Shown piece after piece: positions 6,909-33,735 of a DNA stretch of 64,000 nucleotides. The notes below the pieces were generated by a model that searched no databases, was not told the origin of the DNA, and saw only the letters and a list, made by a program, of their open reading frames with translations. Made by a program: the position numbers and the translations under genes. The DNA comes from a bacterium (GTDB taxonomy: Bacteria > Patescibacteriota > Minisyncoccia > Phycocordibacterales > UBA9973): positions 207,157 through 271,156 of the forward strand of contig JBAWZD010000002.1 of assembly GCA_037143195.1 (NCBI GenBank), written 5' to 3'. Positions within the stretch are counted from its first letter, which is position 1. The number at the start of each line of letters is the position of its first letter.

Positions 6909-8030
6909 ATGATAAACACTATTGGCATTATCGGTGGAGGCCAGCTTGGCAGAATGCTTACAGATGCGGCTCATCGTCTCGGTTTTAAAGTACTTATTCT
7001 TGATCCTGAGCCCAATTCTCCTGCCGGACAAGTCGCAGATGGACAAGTCGTAGGAGATTATAAAGACGAAAAAACAATTCTTGAGTTTTCAAAATCAGTT
7101 GACGTTATTACCTACGATATTGAAGGAGTGAGTGATCACGCTTTAGAATTACTTGAGCAGAGTGGATTTCAGGTTCATCCAACATCGAAAACACTTTCGA
7201 TTATTCGAGATAAGTTCACACAAAAAAAACTTCTGAATTCGGTCGGCATCCCCGTTGCAGATTTTATGGAAGTATCGACACCAGCTGATGCAGAGAGAGC
7301 AGGTGAGACATTCGGCTACCCATATATCCTCAAGGCTCGTACGGGAGGATTTGATGGAAGAGGTAATGCGAAAATACATTCACCGAGCGATATTGAACCT
7401 ATGTTTAGGGTGCTTGGCACAAATCTCTGCGCAGAAAAATTTATTCCTTTTGACAGGGAACTTGCAATTGTTGCGGCGAGAACGGTGCAAGGGGAGATTG
7501 CCGTTTTTCCTCTCGTGGAGACTGTCCACGAAGATCATATTTGTAAAATGACATTCACTCCGGCAAACGCGACGAATACTATTCGTGAAAAGGCGTCGTT
7601 GATTGCACAAAAAGTACTTGCTGCTTTTCTAGGTGCGGGTGTTTTTGCAATAGAATTGTTTTTGGTGGGGGATGATCTTCTTGTGAATGAGATTGCTCCT
7701 CGGGTGCACAACAGCGGACATTTTTCTATCGAGGCGTGTGTGACATCACAGTTTGAGCAGCACATACGAGCCATAACGGGGATGCCACTTGGTCCATCAG
7801 AAATGAAAGTTCCGTGTGCTGTCATGGTGAATATCCTTGGTACGCGTGATGGGATTTCGGAACCACGTGGCGTCGAAGAGGCGGAAAAAATTCCTGGTGT
7901 AACGGTGCATATCTATGGTAAATTACAGGTACAAAAAAAGCGAAAAATGGGACATATCACGGCAGTAGCAAGTACGAGAGAAGAAGCACAGCGGAACACA
8001 GAGAAAGCATTAGCGGCTATTACACTATGA
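6909..8030 (+). CDS. purK: N5-carboxyaminoimidazole ribonucleotide synthase (ATP-grasp)
   Basis: IGIIGGGQLGRM N-terminus, ATP-grasp layout, 4-bp overlap with purE. Confidence 0.9.
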   Translation: MINTIGIIGGGQLGRMLTDAAHRLGFKVLILDPEPNSPAGQVADGQVVGDYKDEKTILEFSKSVDVITYDIEGVSDHALELLEQSGFQVHPTSKTLSIIRDKFTQKKLLNSVGIPVADFMEVSTPADAERAGETFGYPYILKARTGGFDGRGNAKIHSPSDIEPMFRVLGTNLCAEKFIPFDRELAIVAARTVQGEIAVFPLVETVHEDHICKMTFTPANATNTIREKASLIAQKVLAAFLGAGVFAIELFLVGDDLLVNEIAPRVHNSGHFSIEACVTSQFEQHIRAITGMPLGPSEMKVPCAVMVNILGTRDGISEPRGVEEAEKIPGVTVHIYGKLQVQKKRKMGHITAVASTREEAQRNTEKALAAITL

Positions 8031-8485
8031 GTAAAAGCAATCCAATCGTTGGAATTATTATGGGATCAGATTCAGACCTGCCAGTCATGAGTGGGGCAGT
8101 TGCAGTGCTCGAACAATTTGGCATCGAATACGAAGTATTAATCGTATCCGCCCATCGAACACCTGACTACATGTTTACGTATTCCAAAACTGCTTCGGAA
8201 AGAGGATTACAGATAATCATCGCTGGTGCTGGAGGCTCGGCTCACTTGCCTGGCATGTGCGCTTCGCTCACGTCTCTTCCTGTCATCGGTGTTCCTGTTC
8301 AGTCAAAAAATATGGACGGAATTGATTCTCTTCTTTCAATAGTCCAAATGCCACCTGGAGTCCCTGTTGCGACTGTCGGTATTGGTGATGCACAGAGTGC
8401 GGGGATTCTCGCAGTTGAAATGCTCGCACTCTCACGCGACGCGCTTACGACACAACTGAAACAGTATAAAAAATTACCCAATTAG
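8027..8485 (+). CDS. purE: N5-CAIR mutase
   Basis: IVGIIMGSDSDLPVM ... AGGSAHLPGM signature. Confidence 0.9.
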   Translation: MSKSNPIVGIIMGSDSDLPVMSGAVAVLEQFGIEYEVLIVSAHRTPDYMFTYSKTASERGLQIIIAGAGGSAHLPGMCASLTSLPVIGVPVQSKNMDGIDSLLSIVQMPPGVPVATVGIGDAQSAGILAVEMLALSRDALTTQLKQYKKLPN

Positions 8486-9327
8486 GGGTTGCATCTCTCG
8501 CACAAGGCAGGCTCTTCAAAAATCTTGTCTTCGCGGGGGACTTCTTTTTCAAGAGCACATTTTTGACATTTTTTAATATATGCACGTGGAGATTCCGTTT
8601 CTTGTTTACAATGGCGACAAAGGAGCCGCCCCTTTGTACCGACAACCACGAAGCCAGGCGTACCGCAGTCGGGACATTCTGATTGAATATTTTTCACAAG
8701 ATCTTCCGTTGCGTTTTGAATATTTTGCATGCGTGTAGGATTCATATGCGCGCGCATGTCTGTCTCAAGGTAGACTTTTTTCGCAAAGAAACCTCGGAGG
8801 AGCGTGTGCACTCTCTGTTCAAGCTCTTCTTGTGTTCGGATTCCTTTATAGAGGGGACGATTACTTTTTTCAGATTTTCGAACGATGAGACCATGCTCCG
8901 GAAATCCGATTTGTTTCGCGAAGGCCCTCGCTTCATCAATGCTCTTCACATATCGGCCAGAAATATTTGTATCCGAAGATCGGGAATGTCCTCGTATCTC
9001 TAGATTGTTTTTCTCATCAACGAGCAAGATAAGTTCAAGATTGGATGGAACAAATGGTATGTTTGGGTCTGATCCAAAGCTACCTTCGCTTGCGATGCCG
9101 AGGTCTGCTCCCATAGTCTTCATGGCTGTTTTGACTTTCAGTCGAGCTGCCTCGAGCTGAGTACCAGTCCTTTTCTTGTCTCGAGTAAATGTGCCAAATT
9201 GGTCGCTATTGAAGTCTTTCGGGACAATCACTTTTACGCCCAACTGCTTTTCAAGGATTGGTGCAATCACTTTTTCTTTTCCATGCATGGTCGCAAGCAC
9301 CAAGATCCTACCAGTAAACATGTCCAT
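8482..9327 (-). CDS. uncharacterised protein with two C-terminal CxxC-x15/17-CxxC zinc ribbons (track ORF extends to 9417; ATG at 9327 MDMFTGR chosen)
   Basis: ORF; two Cys4 ribbons read in translation. Confidence 0.55.
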   Translation of the reverse strand: MDMFTGRILVLATMHGKEKVIAPILEKQLGVKVIVPKDFNSDQFGTFTRDKKRTGTQLEAARLKVKTAMKTMGADLGIASEGSFGSDPNIPFVPSNLELILLVDEKNNLEIRGHSRSSDTNISGRYVKSIDEARAFAKQIGFPEHGLIVRKSEKSNRPLYKGIRTQEELEQRVHTLLRGFFAKKVYLETDMRAHMNPTRMQNIQNATEDLVKNIQSECPDCGTPGFVVVGTKGRLLCRHCKQETESPRAYIKKCQKCALEKEVPREDKIFEEPALCERCNP

Positions 9328-9385
9328 AGACGCATTGTAGTAAAACACACACAAAAGCTCAATGGTGCTGACGGTCAGTATGTAA

Positions 9386-9577
9386 TTTTTATATAATACA
9401 TTTTTTGTTGTCGTCACCGAGATTCAAAATATAGCTATTGAAATTGCTCTTACGAAACTTCACCCCGAACACGATGAGGCGATTGGCCGAAGCAAAGATT
9501 TAGCTTCGGCCGCTGTGGTGTGGGCATTTGTATTTGGAATTATTAGTCTTGTCTTTGTGCTCTGCCATACATTGTAA
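9386..9577 (+). pseudogene. dgkA: 3-prime remnant of diacylglycerol kinase DgkA, no start codon (stop-to-stop open frame 9386..9577)
   Basis: translation AIEIALTKLHPEHDEAIGRSKDLASAAVVWAFVFGII matches the DgkA C-terminus (E. coli AIEAVVDRIGSEYHELSGRAKDMGSAAVLIAII). Confidence 0.5.
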
Positions 9578-9603
9578 AATATTTTAATTATTGGTATCAA
9601 AAC

Positions 9604-9628
9604 AAAAAGCACCCATTGGGTGCTTTTT
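9604..9628. terminator. bidirectional intrinsic terminator aaaaagcaccc-att-gggtgcttttt; second hairpin at 9642-9658
   Basis: A-tract/stem/T-tract read directly. Confidence 0.65.
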
Positions 9629-9663
9629 GTTTTGTATTTGAGGGTACTACGTACCCTTGGTAC

Positions 9664-9870
9664 TTATTTGCGTGCGAGCTTTGGAAGTGTGAATGCTACG
9701 TAGACTGCTGAGAGTCCAACGAGAACATACACGATGCGAGCGAGTACTGACATGTCGCCAAATACTGCGCTGACAAGGTTGAAGTTGAAGGCTCCAACGA
9801 GACCCCAGTTCAAACCACCGACGACGACGAGCACGAGAGCAACCCAATCAAATGTTGTAAGATTTTTCAT
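9664..9870 (-). CDS. DUF378 family small membrane protein
   Basis: GGLNWGLVGAFNFNLV motif. Confidence 0.8.
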   Translation of the reverse strand: MKNLTTFDWVALVLVVVGGLNWGLVGAFNFNLVSAVFGDMSVLARIVYVLVGLSAVYVAFTLPKLARK

Positions 9871-10006
9871 ATTTACTTTCTACTAATTAATAATGTATAT
9901 ATTGTAGCATTCTTTTGTCGAAATGGGTGATGGATTTGATTTTGAGCTATAAAAAAACCAAAGCGCACTTTTTGAGTACGCCTTGGGTGAATGATGTCTG
10001 CGTATA

Positions 10007-10366
10007 TTACGCGGGCCGTTGATAGAGGATGATGGTCTCTCCGTTAATATCTCCCGCAAAATCGCGGACGATTTGGAGGCGGTTTTCATTTACGTCGTCT
10101 TCCCATCGTTTGACGAATTCTTCTATCATCAGCGGTTTGAATCTATCCTCGTACAGCGTACGAGCCTCATTACTTGTAAATTCAAACATGTGTAGTCTAA
10201 AAATCGCCCCGCTATCATTTGCTGGAACCATTTTGTAGCTCACACTCTGGAAGCAGTCGGTTTTCCACATTTTTGGAAAGTGGTCTTCAGTGAACCACTG
10301 CTGAACATCGTTTTGTTTTTCCTTATCAAACGTAAGTAAAACACTGTAATTGAACCCTGTTAACAC
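10007..10366 (-). CDS. hypothetical protein
   Basis: ORF only. Confidence 0.45.
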   Translation of the reverse strand: MLTGFNYSVLLTFDKEKQNDVQQWFTEDHFPKMWKTDCFQSVSYKMVPANDSGAIFRLHMFEFTSNEARTLYEDRFKPLMIEEFVKRWEDDVNENRLQIVRDFAGDINGETIILYQRPA

Positions 10367-10517
10367 TATGCCCCTCCTCCTTTAGGGTGGCTTTTTGTTT
10401 AATCTTAAATTAACACAGAATAATATATATTCAAATACCACTGTTACGCTTGTGGCAGAGTCTCGGTACTGTATAATGCGGACGCGACAAGTCTTAAAAA
10501 TAACAAGGATAAAAAGT

Positions 10518-10931
10518 ATGAAAAAATATAGTAACGTGCTTTTAAAAATTGTGTTTAGTCTCATACTGCTCATCCCAATATTGGGAGCGGTGCATGTATT
10601 CCCAGCACCAACACAAGAGATGTATAACAACCCGCGATCATTTGCGTTCATTCAGATGCTCATGGATTCTGCTTCATACATAAATTATATTATGGCCTTT
10701 GTATTTGGTCTGTCTCTCGTACTCGTCTGGACCAAGCGCATGGCACTCGCTGCGCTTTTGGTGCTACCAATTACCGTTAATATTGTAGCCTTTCATGCGT
10801 TTCTTGATGGGGGATTGATTACTTCAGGAGCTATTCCTGGTGTCGTGTTTGCTGTACTAAACGGTTACTTTTTGTGGCAACAGCGAGCAGCGTATTCTCA
10901 ACTATTTGCATATTGGAGCGATACGGATTAG
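10518..10931 (+). CDS. membrane protein (start at ATG 10518 with aagga RBS)
   Basis: hydrophobic helices; RBS. Confidence 0.5.
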   Translation: MKKYSNVLLKIVFSLILLIPILGAVHVFPAPTQEMYNNPRSFAFIQMLMDSASYINYIMAFVFGLSLVLVWTKRMALAALLVLPITVNIVAFHAFLDGGLITSGAIPGVVFAVLNGYFLWQQRAAYSQLFAYWSDTD

Positions 10932-10950
10932 ATTGAAGAAAATCGTTTCT

Positions 10951-11382
10951 ATGGCATTTAAACTAAAAAAGCACGATGTGCACATTACTTCACAGCATCC
11001 CCAAGTCATGATGACAGGGAAGAAGACATTGGACCACATCGATCCAGATAGTGGTCTCTCTACGATATATTACGACACCTTGCTCGGTGTCGTGACGATT
11101 GCAAAAAGCTGCAACGTGAAGGATTGTCGTAAGATTATTCGGGTCACGAAATGGAAGCCCGTTACCTATGGTGAAAGGTTCAAAAAATTTGGTAAGGTTG
11201 AGACCGATAAAAATCGTCTCAATATCCAACGGTTGGACCGAGAAGTATTTATTTTTTCGGAGCGACTTATCGGCGATCGGCTACGTAAGCTGACAATGAA
11301 AGAAATAAAATTATTTTTGAATTCGATTCAACAAATAATTGAACCAAACGGCACAAAATTTTTCCCAGAAGAAAGTAGTTGA
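10951..11382 (+). CDS. hypothetical protein
   Basis: ORF; start ATG 10951 placed 20 nt after the upstream stop. Confidence 0.45.
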   Translation: MAFKLKKHDVHITSQHPQVMMTGKKTLDHIDPDSGLSTIYYDTLLGVVTIAKSCNVKDCRKIIRVTKWKPVTYGERFKKFGKVETDKNRLNIQRLDREVFIFSERLIGDRLRKLTMKEIKLFLNSIQQIIEPNGTKFFPEESS

Positions 11383-11434
11383 GTTATAAACTCAACTACT
11401 TTTGCGTTTCCTCGCACTTTGAGTCGGGGGCAAC

Positions 11435-12121
11435 CTAGAGAGTTTCCTTATGGAACGAATACCGCGCCATGATTAGCTTATCAATCACGAGTGACGGCAC
11501 GATGCTGAGTATCTGAGTGAGGATGAGCATAAAGACGCCAATACGAATTGAAAGGAAGGAGACGGCCAATGCAAGGAGGTCACTTCCGATAGAGAAGCTC
11601 ATGCGTGATTTGAAACGAAAGATGATGGCGTCTGTTGCGTTGGTGACCACAAGTGTTTGCTTGTCTGTCGCGTACCACCAATGGAGATATAGAATACTTG
11701 TACATACAATGAGGTTGAGTCCATAGAAAATGACGGCCAAAATGTCCGCTGGATATGTCGCAAGCAAGTCGGTGAAGAAAGGGACTAGAACGATGAACAT
11801 GAAAAAGAAAATGTTTATCCAAAGAAACGTACGGTTCGAACGTTGGATCCAATTGTATTGATTGTGGTGTGCGACCCACAAGACTCCGAGACCGATGAAT
11901 GAGAGGACATAGATAATGAATTGCGGAATGAGTCCGACCAGTACGTGTCCGGCTGTACCGAGGGGTTCAGTCGTCGTCGGTAGACGAAAGTTCAACACGA
12001 GGAGTGTCATCGCAAAGGCGAAAATACTATCACCAAGCGCTTGAATTCGGTCCGTGGTCAATCCTGCCGATTGGATAAGTTGTTGGGTGTCGTCGCTTGT
12101 TTGGGTTTTGTTTTTCCACAT
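11435..12121 (-). CDS. TMEM175/DUF1211 family membrane protein (putative K+ channel-like)
   Basis: RIQALGDSIFAFAMTLLVL matches the RxxxFSDGVFAIAITLLVL signature. Confidence 0.7.
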   Translation of the reverse strand: MWKNKTQTSDDTQQLIQSAGLTTDRIQALGDSIFAFAMTLLVLNFRLPTTTEPLGTAGHVLVGLIPQFIIYVLSFIGLGVLWVAHHNQYNWIQRSNRTFLWINIFFFMFIVLVPFFTDLLATYPADILAVIFYGLNLIVCTSILYLHWWYATDKQTLVVTNATDAIIFRFKSRMSFSIGSDLLALAVSFLSIRIGVFMLILTQILSIVPSLVIDKLIMARYSFHKETL

Positions 12122-33541: not shown

Positions 33542-33569
33542 GGGTGATGTGCGGTGCGATTACAAATGA

Positions 33570-33735
33570 ATAATCATGATTGGGGAAGTGAGGTGAAAAT
33601 CCTCCACAGTGCCGCTACGGTTATAGTCCGACTACCAATCATTGATGTAGTAATGAAACTTTTTGTTTCATCCCGAGCAGGAAATGGTCGCGCGTACGCG
33701 CGACCCCGGTACTCCTCTCCTCGGGGGAGTTTTTT
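33570..33735 (+). promoter_or_regulatory. candidate cobalamin riboswitch with terminator-type expression platform (hairpin plus TTTTTT at 33709-33734)
   Basis: GGGGAAg-tga-GGTGAAAATCC-tcca-CaGtgCCGCtACgGTtA matches the AdoCbl core GGGAA..GGUGnAAnUCC..CnGnCCCGCnACnGUnA; AGCAGGAAA resembles a degenerate B12 box. Confidence 0.6.

Follow-up and report, generated by a model that had tools for sequence, protein, structure and literature searches.

A dgkA pseudogene beside a resident DUF6671 gene, and a probable tie of the DUF6671 family to inorganic carbon

We describe a gene of the DUF6671 family and its surroundings in a 64,000-nucleotide stretch of bacterial DNA (contig JBAWZD010000002.1; hereafter the window), where the gene lies between purE and purK on one side and the 3' half of a dgkA gene on the other. 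The dgkA remnant and the DUF6671 gene are two unrelated things that abut: the remnant is a dead, recent and ordinary pseudogene, a gene scar, and DUF6671 is a resident of the locus, whose relatives in other bacteria keep company with genes for the import, production or use of CO2 and bicarbonate. What is new here is a functional lead for the DUF6671 family and not this locus, which pairs a plain family member with a plain pseudogene. Taken whole, the explanation that rearrangement made the dgkA pseudogene next to a resident DUF6671 gene, whose product would be an accessory of bicarbonate supply, appears to us probable; its structural and evolutionary statements we make with high confidence.

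The DUF6671 gene (8482 to 9327, minus strand; ORF, or open reading frame, list and Pfam) encodes 281 residues from an ATG at 9327, with a second ATG at 9321, and its product matches the full Pfam model PF20376 (profile positions 1-217 of 217 against residues 64-281, E 3.6e-65, 220.2 bits at a cut-off of 23.8). An earlier note, made from the sequence without database searches, had described a convergent gene of 280 residues and unknown family; the gene is convergent, real and intact, its length is 281, and its family is already named at NCBI, where an identical protein stands as 'MAG: DUF6671 family protein [bacterium]' (MAG, metagenome-assembled genome), although the function of that family is indeed uncharacterized. 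A GTG at 9417 would add 30 residues, a start that is unsupported because homologues of 278-291 residues lack the extension and align from residues 1-3. Our homologue search, covering 5.8 billion proteins at a cut-off of E<=1e-5, returned 6,983 clusters, nearly all in that length range. After the identical entry the closest relatives are encoded at two loci, L001 (75% identity) and L003 (71%), and the databases searched hold none above 75%; the nearest named genomes that carry the gene are Candidatus Paceibacteria/Paceibacterota MAGs. Together with the names among the DgkA homologues given below, this marks the window as DNA of a bacterium of the candidate phyla radiation (CPR, Patescibacteria).

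Both C-terminal zinc ribbons proposed in the earlier note are present, with spacings of x15 and x18 and not x15 and x17: C218-x2-C221-x15-C237-x2-C240 (8608 to 8676, minus strand) and C254-x2-C257-x18-C276-x2-C279 (8491 to 8568, minus strand), the first modelled as beta-hairpins and the second likewise seen in the model. All eight cysteines are invariant in a 61-sequence alignment of homologues, as are N280 and P281, which close the protein after the second ribbon. In its length (about 280 residues in the family), its two Cys4 ribbons and its invariant residues the protein is a typical DUF6671 member, with no feature that sets it apart. Sixteen further invariant residues are polar (H15, K17, E18, D42, R53, K64, E81, E98, D104, E110, K161, E188, D190, R192, H194 and R199), a pattern that would suit a ligand-binding or catalytic site better than a scaffold. 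We found no study of DUF6671 in the literature searched.

Why does such a protein sit beside purEK? The genomic company of the family suggests an answer. DUF6671 is spread across Bacteroidota, Proteobacteria, Cyanobacteria, Chlamydiota, Bacillota, Verrucomicrobiota and bacteria of the candidate phyla radiation (CPR). We took a census of 82 loci (80 best loci from one-genome-per-species contigs plus metagenomic relatives), and in 56 of them tblastn placed at least one of DabA, Sbt_1, Sua5, isocitrate dehydrogenase (IDH) or PurE with PurK within 5 kb of DUF6671. Sbt_1 was the most frequent (25 loci), followed by IDH (23), Sua5 (20), DabA (16) and PurE together with PurK (8). The partners are close: 97 matches fell within 2.5 kb, nine between 2.5 and 5 kb and one between 5 and 10 kb, with comparable amounts of flank in each distance bin. 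Between 90 and 96% of partner matches are co-directional with DUF6671, compared with about half for purE and purK.

A Pfam census of called ORFs, scanning two on each side of DUF6671, gives the order of these neighbours. Upstream stand DabA (10 loci), the DabB-type Proton_antipo_M (10), Sbt_1 (5), Iso_dh with Isocitrate_DH_C_bact (14) and LysR (10); downstream, Sua5_yciO_yrdC with Sua5_C (16), Sbt_1 (12), Iso_dh (4), AIRC (3) and LysR (3). Individual loci combine them in various ways, as in DabB-DabA-DUF6671 (L017), IDH, an 82-residue protein, DUF6671 and Sbt_1 (L016) and DUF6671-Sua5-Sbt_1 (L029), three representatives whose calls were checked one by one, and as in IDH-DUF6671 followed by Sua5, PurE and PurK (L073), PurE-PurK-DUF6671 followed by Sbt_1 (L081), PurE, PurK, Sbt_1 and DUF6671 together in Azonexus (L035), and DabB-DabA-DUF6671-PurE-PurK in a member of the Bacillota (L070). 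In Chlamydiota the association goes as far as gene fusion. One locus (L051, 7724-10840) encodes a 1,038-residue protein with DabA at residues 63-712 and DUF6671 at 819-1038, and at least 23 protein clusters from Parachlamydia- and Waddlia-like Chlamydiota, about 1,000-1,180 residues long, are such fusions (P0241-P0259, P0263, P0265, P0287 and P0304, the last more divergent at 46% identity).

As a separate observation, a family of small proteins of roughly 82-119 residues, without a Pfam match, lies directly beside DUF6671 in 16 loci from Bacteroidota and Akkermansia (for example L016 9653-9901, L025 9721-10008 and L056 9666-10025). It is 5' of DUF6671 and co-directional in 15 of them and 3' in one (L042), and in several, L016 included, it stands between icd and DUF6671. 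It is absent from the window, and possibly represents a partner protein of DUF6671.

What unites these neighbours? Isocitrate dehydrogenase gives off CO2, Sua5/TsaC makes threonylcarbamoyl-AMP from bicarbonate or CO2 and ATP, and Sbt_1 is the SbtA bicarbonate-transporter superfamily. DabAB hydrates CO2 vectorially (10.1101/476713; 10.64898/2026.05.01.722082), DABs provide bicarbonate in heterotrophs (10.1101/476713), and PurK uses HCO3-, mutants of purK requiring high CO2 (PMC10880623). The common denominator of the DUF6671 partners is inorganic carbon, whether its import, its production or its use. Because the partners share it, the purEK adjacency in the window is one instance of a family-wide pattern, and we infer that this adjacency reflects a bicarbonate link. 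That DUF6671 is tied to inorganic carbon at all is a reading we favour with moderate confidence.

We propose that DUF6671 may act in the cytosol as an accessory to the bicarbonate supply of the cell. It could be a regulatory or auxiliary subunit that binds a phospho-nucleotide and ties uptake by DAB or SbtA to the demand of enzymes which, like PurK, depend on bicarbonate and ATP, with an ITPase-like pocket that would sense a phospho-nucleotide, reporting energy charge or a purine intermediate, and with the zinc ribbons as a putative docking or structural module. Docking on the uptake machinery is favoured because DUF6671 is fused to cytosolic DabA and occupies an operonic position after transporters. 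The regulator mechanism specifically we put forward as tentative, and on balance doubtful.

A possible functional analogue is SbtB, the PII-like regulator of the SbtA bicarbonate transporter, likewise a small cytosolic protein encoded beside a bicarbonate transporter, and nucleotide binding, presumed for DUF6671, would extend the likeness. The analogy would be one of role and not of fold, since SbtB is a PII ferredoxin-like trimer whereas DUF6671 has an ITPase-like domain and zinc ribbons; DUF6671 also differs in accompanying DabAB, PurEK, Sua5 and IDH. As for the DAB pump, DUF6671 follows dabB-dabA in 16 of the 82 loci, so that an operonic or fused association with dabAB is found among homologues and not in the window. 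DUF6671 is not among the described DAB subunits, the third of them, DabC of DAB1, being an unrelated NuoM-like membrane protein (10.64898/2026.05.01.722082), and DabAB alone is enough for function in E. coli (10.1101/476713). The literature searched contains no cytosolic accessory of DAB or SbtA that matches DUF6671.

The fold of the protein is what points to nucleotides. An AlphaFold2 model built on the 61-sequence alignment is a confident single body (mean pLDDT, the predicted local distance difference test, 93; pTM, the predicted template modelling score, 0.88), and Foldseek matches it to YjjX (E 5e-5), RdgB (1.6e-4), ITPA (2.5e-4) and Mj0226 (9e-4), with a probability of 1.00. The model thus places DUF6671 in the three-dimensional fold shared by the ITPase-like superfamily (Ham1, YjjX, Maf), and shows residues ~1-215, the N-terminal globular domain (8683 to 9327, minus strand), as a very divergent domain of that kind, predicted to precede two structural Cys4 ribbons. 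With hhalign, DUF6671 pairs 'VLATM-HGKEK' with RdgB 'VLATGNVGKVR' and 'GIASEGSFG' with YjjX 'VAIEAGIDG', segments that are presumably the phosphate-binding Lys loop and the acidic strand of ITPases. K17 then falls opposite the motif Lys of RdgB, and E81 lies on the strand opposite the acidic strand of YjjX, in alignments that are short and weak. Judging from the model, the N-terminal domain probably binds a phospho-nucleotide. The distance from the known enzymes is nevertheless large: relative to the ITPase-like NTP pyrophosphatases (Ham1/RdgB/ITPA, YjjX and Maf), identity is 8-19%, DUF6671 has further secondary-structure elements and, unlike ITPases, a double zinc ribbon at its C-terminus, and its genomic context is inorganic carbon, as opposed to nucleotide housekeeping.

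Several observations weigh against an accessory role in bicarbonate supply. The window contains no dabAB, sbtA, sua5 or icd anywhere in its 64 kb, and no gene other than purK-purE in it matches our inorganic-carbon query set. None of the partner genes is found in 26 of the 82 loci, and the closest Paceibacteria loci (L005-L013) lack any inorganic-carbon neighbour. In the window, as at L001 and L003, DUF6671 is convergent with purE and not operonic with it. On the structural side, TM-scores of the model against ITPases are only about 0.4; neither Pfam nor NCBIfam gives a Ham1, Maf or NTPase family match at E<=0.1, and the NCBIfam scan of the window protein returned no match of any kind; a profile search of the PDB found no ITPase at E<=1 and only spurious zinc-ribbon matches; and the hhalign scores are weak (E 0.01 against RdgB, 0.1 against YjjX). 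The similarity to ITPases is thus at the level of the modelled fold only, nucleotide binding by DUF6671 is presumed, and on present evidence a regulator and an enzyme look alike.

Two other functions deserve consideration. DUF6671 could be a nucleotide (pyro)phosphatase akin to ITPases, with a role in house-cleaning or salvage, acting on purine-type, carbamoyl or carboxy nucleotides such as inosine or xanthosine triphosphate (ITP/XTP), N5-carboxyaminoimidazole ribonucleotide (N5-CAIR) or threonylcarbamoyl-AMP, in which case its neighbours would reflect nucleotide chemistry and not the control of inorganic-carbon uptake. The ITPase/YjjX-like fold fits such an activity, the many invariant acidic and basic residues are enzyme-like, and PurEK and Sua5 produce labile N-carboxy or carbamoyl nucleotides. 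However, this would leave unexplained the more frequent DabAB, Sbt_1 and IDH neighbours and the fusion to DabA, and at sequence level the protein matches none of the families Ham1, Maf and YjjX; we regard a phosphatase as unlikely, though it fares best among the alternatives. Somewhat less likely still is that DUF6671 is a carbonic-anhydrase-like enzyme of CO2 and bicarbonate, or a zinc-ribbon protein that binds nucleic acid and controls a low-CO2 regulon. The steady association with producers and consumers of bicarbonate would suit either; the conserved E188-x-D190-x-R192-A-H194 motif and H15 supply candidate metal ligands for the former, and for the latter zinc ribbons are often nucleic-acid binders and LysR regulators are frequent neighbours. 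Yet DabA already has a beta-carbonic-anhydrase site, so that a second one fused to it is not obviously useful, the eight cysteines make up two Cys4 sites of the kind usual for structural zinc and not a three-ligand catalytic site, and a transcription factor is an unlikely fusion partner for a subunit of a membrane complex.

We turn to the other side of the gene. The plus-strand frame 9386-9577 reads FLYNTFFVVVTEIQNIAIEIALTKLHPEHDEAIGRSKDLASAAVVWAFVFGIISLVFVLCHTL, preceded by a TAA at 9383-9385 and closed by one at 9575-9577, and it is, as the earlier note recognized, the C-terminus of DgkA, the undecaprenol/diacylglycerol kinase. It scores above the gathering threshold of Pfam DAGK_prokar (PF01219; E 3.6e-10, 40 bits against a cut-off of 22.3), matching profile positions 48-102 of 102 only, and its last 58 codons share 88% identity with the DgkA of a relative (tblastn E 1e-29). 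Homology in both DNA and protein starts at 9401, whether the comparison is with the copy of L003 or with the intact copy of L087. The remnant (9401 to 9577, plus strand; translation, Pfam, tblastn and blastn) accordingly comprises codons 60-117 of 117 (58 codons, 9401-9574) and the TAA stop, so that half of dgkA is gone and not two-thirds, as had been estimated.

We searched for dgkA homologues with the DgkA of L003 and found 214, of which 120 are listed; their names include Paceibacterota or Parcubacteria. In this list nearly every entry has 117 residues and 75-95% identity, the shorter ones lying on sub-kilobase or 1-kb contigs, and intact sequences of the clade start MNYWIKRLSNPFRGLRYAFTRDFAVRFE. 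The remnant keeps the conserved segments 'TEIQN.AIE' and 'GRSKD..SAAV', and lacks codons 1-59, with the N-terminal amphipathic helix, the first of three transmembrane helices and most of the second, together with a start codon. No ATG, GTG or TTG precedes the GTG within 'AAVVW', that is, none comes before the last ~24 codons, which is why no ORF of at least 40 residues is listed here. Neither a second dgkA nor the lost 5' half turned up in the 64-kb window (tblastn with word size 2 and E up to 50 gave chance matches only). The E. coli enzyme requires the N-terminal helix and all three transmembrane helices for its active site.

How old is the truncation? By the Nei-Gojobori method, applied to the final 61 codons (58 of them homologous and three at the edge), nonsynonymous and synonymous divergence (dN and dS) are 0.106 and 1.22 against L003 and 0.122 and 1.6 against L087, compared with 0.029 and 0.89 between L003 and L087. 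With dN/dS at about 0.09, dS above 1, and neither a stop nor a frameshift, the remnant was under purifying selection for almost all of its divergence time; its decay has barely begun, and compared with the split from the relatives the truncation is recent.

In L003 the 5' end of dgkA (11361-11700, minus strand) is damaged as well: homology to the 117-residue protein begins at about codon 20, upstream of which lie a TGA and indels, and the remaining ORF has 93 residues and a GTG start. An alternative code that reads TGA as sense, which would rescue this copy, was ruled out because purK terminates in TGA at conserved length. It may be that dgkA is decaying repeatedly in this sub-clade.

The arrangement of the locus explains how the two came to abut. 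The purK gene (373 codons, 6909 to 8030, plus strand; a bicarbonate- and ATP-dependent N5-CAIR synthetase) and purE (152 codons, 8027 to 8485, plus strand, from the ORF list) are both intact; PurK is 80-85% identical to the PurK proteins of L001 and L003, which carry ATP-grasp and PurK_C domains, and purE is 76-78% identical to its counterparts there. DUF6671 is indeed immediately next to purEK, its stop codon overlapping that of purE by 4 bp. L003 has the same tail-to-tail junction with a 6-bp gap, in the order TMEM175, DUF6671 and, on the opposite strand, purE and purK. In L001, DUF6671 stands tail-to-tail with a purE fragment, and farther on come an 879-residue PG_binding_1 gene and then an intact purE-purK. 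The purE-purK pair also adjoins DUF6671 at loci of distant Bacillota and elsewhere (L070, L075, L081 and L086), and lies 2.4-2.7 kb away in L035 and L073. Because it is kept in L001 and L003, the DUF6671/purE/purK junction is a conserved ancestral element.

The L001 purE fragment is a partial duplicate covering positions 80-143 of the AIRC profile, and between it and the PG_binding_1 gene lies a partial second copy of a 189-residue gene whose other copy is 5' of DUF6671. The segments 8848-9245 and 7418-7987 of L001 are duplication or insertion scars at the same junction.

On its 5' side, by contrast with this conserved junction, DUF6671 has a different neighbour in each genome: TMEM175 in L003, the 189-residue gene in L001 and the dgkA remnant in the window, which starts 74 bp from the DUF6671 start codon. 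Sequence comparison of these three marks that side as a rearrangement hot spot. L003 is colinear with the window (26491 to 6844 in a blastn map) except for a 2.1-kb block, 9343 to 11470, that is absent from this position in L003, where TMEM175 is joined directly to DUF6671; the left edge of the block is the dgkA breakpoint, and the L003 homologues of dgkA, DUF378 and p138 lie beyond its purK. A local rearrangement would have set the block (dgkA'-DUF378-DUF4286-p138-p158) between DUF6671 and TMEM175, and a breakpoint inside dgkA would have brought its 3' half beside the resident DUF6671 gene. The context of dgkA differs in each of three genomes, the L001 genome carrying an intact 117-residue dgkA about 18 kb away in another setting, and the flanks of L087, the intact copy of this nearest relative, having no counterpart in the window or L003 that would point to a donor site; three genomes are too few to give the rearrangement a direction, and with no relative above 75% identity the event is undatable and the junction without independent confirmation.

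Could the junction be an artefact of the MAG assembly, with dgkA intact in the real chromosome? The contig does come from a MAG, the DUF6671 protein is carried by it alone and the dgkA remnant is almost undecayed. A chimeric assembly is unlikely because both ends of the block rejoin the L003-colinear backbone with all pieces at a similar divergence of 73-86%; the junction also has no repeat to mislead an assembler, and comparable gene scars occur at the same locus in L001 and L003. We consider an artefact improbable.

More improbable still is the scenario of the earlier note, in which an insertion/deletion event brought in DUF6671 at the expense of the 5' part of dgkA. The remnant lies close to the start of DUF6671, and the missing half would occupy its place. 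Against this, the DUF6671/purE/purK junction is kept in L001 and L003 and recurs in distant phyla; in relatives dgkA is not at this position; the GC content of the DUF6671 gene (43-47%) equals that of its flanks, with no compositional anomaly; and DUF6671 has no flanking repeats or mobile-element signatures, the block as a whole showing only short chance repeats and a terminator hairpin at its flanks. Since the zinc-ribbon gene was here ancestrally, the insertion model fails on the very point by which the earlier note proposed to judge it. Equally remote is a functional mini-protein of two transmembrane helices, expressed from the DgkA frame through a non-canonical start codon or on a leaderless transcript, for which speak the low dN/dS, the intact frame and a promoter-like CTGACG-18-TATAAT just ahead, and against which stand the missing start codon, a DgkA active site that needs all the parts the remnant lacks, the low dN/dS expected anyway of a recent truncation, and the absence of any comparably short protein among the 120 homologues listed, which also leaves without support the idea that the frame is conserved as a small protein in relatives.

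The remaining features of the locus are minor. Within the 2.1-kb block, mapped by blastn synteny, L003 gene calls and Pfam, lie DUF378 (9664-9870, minus strand) and DUF4286 (10007-10366, minus strand), both identified with Pfam, the 138-residue membrane protein p138 (~10520-10931, plus strand) and the 158-residue ORF p158 (10906-11382, plus strand). A perfect inverted repeat of 18 nt with A and T runs at its sides (9598 to 9634) separates the dgkA remnant from DUF378 and resembles a bidirectional terminator, and L003 has a comparable hairpin 3' of DUF378. The CTGACG-18-TATAAT site just 5' of the startless dgkA remnant (9368-9397, plus strand) is sigma-70-like, matching at 10 of 12 positions, and could drive a non-coding or antisense transcript toward that hairpin. 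The sole promoter-like site 5' of DUF6671, TTGAGC-17-TACAAT (9334 to 9362, minus strand), comes from a consensus scan only, with no evidence of function; its -10-like TACAAT stops 7 nt short of the ATG, nothing upstream of that ATG (9327-9362) resembles a Shine-Dalgarno sequence, and the mRNA may be leaderless. Elsewhere in the window, at 33563-33645 (plus strand), lies an AdoCbl-II (cobalamin) riboswitch aptamer, a full-length model match of 55.4 bits against a gathering threshold of 36.5.

In conclusion, the dgkA remnant shows only gene shuffling and loss around purEK in this Paceibacterota lineage, and the interest of the locus lies in its neighbour. The link to CO2 and bicarbonate, together with the ITPase-like fold, makes a very common uncharacterized protein directly testable, and for the questions of how heterotrophs and pathogens obtain bicarbonate when CO2 is at ambient levels and of what regulates DAB and SbtA outside cyanobacteria, DUF6671 is a concrete, cloneable candidate. 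It is a serious possibility, if one we stop short of calling probable, that DUF6671 is an unrecognized, widespread cytosolic component of inorganic-carbon homeostasis, a zinc-ribbon protein of ITPase fold which would dock on DabA- or SbtA-type transporters, in Chlamydiota as a fused domain, and adjust the uptake of CO2 and bicarbonate to what PurK, TsaC/Sua5 and similar enzymes require. That it stays beside purEK in a reduced Paceibacterota genome may then mark it as part of a minimal module that supplies bicarbonate for the carboxylation of purines.

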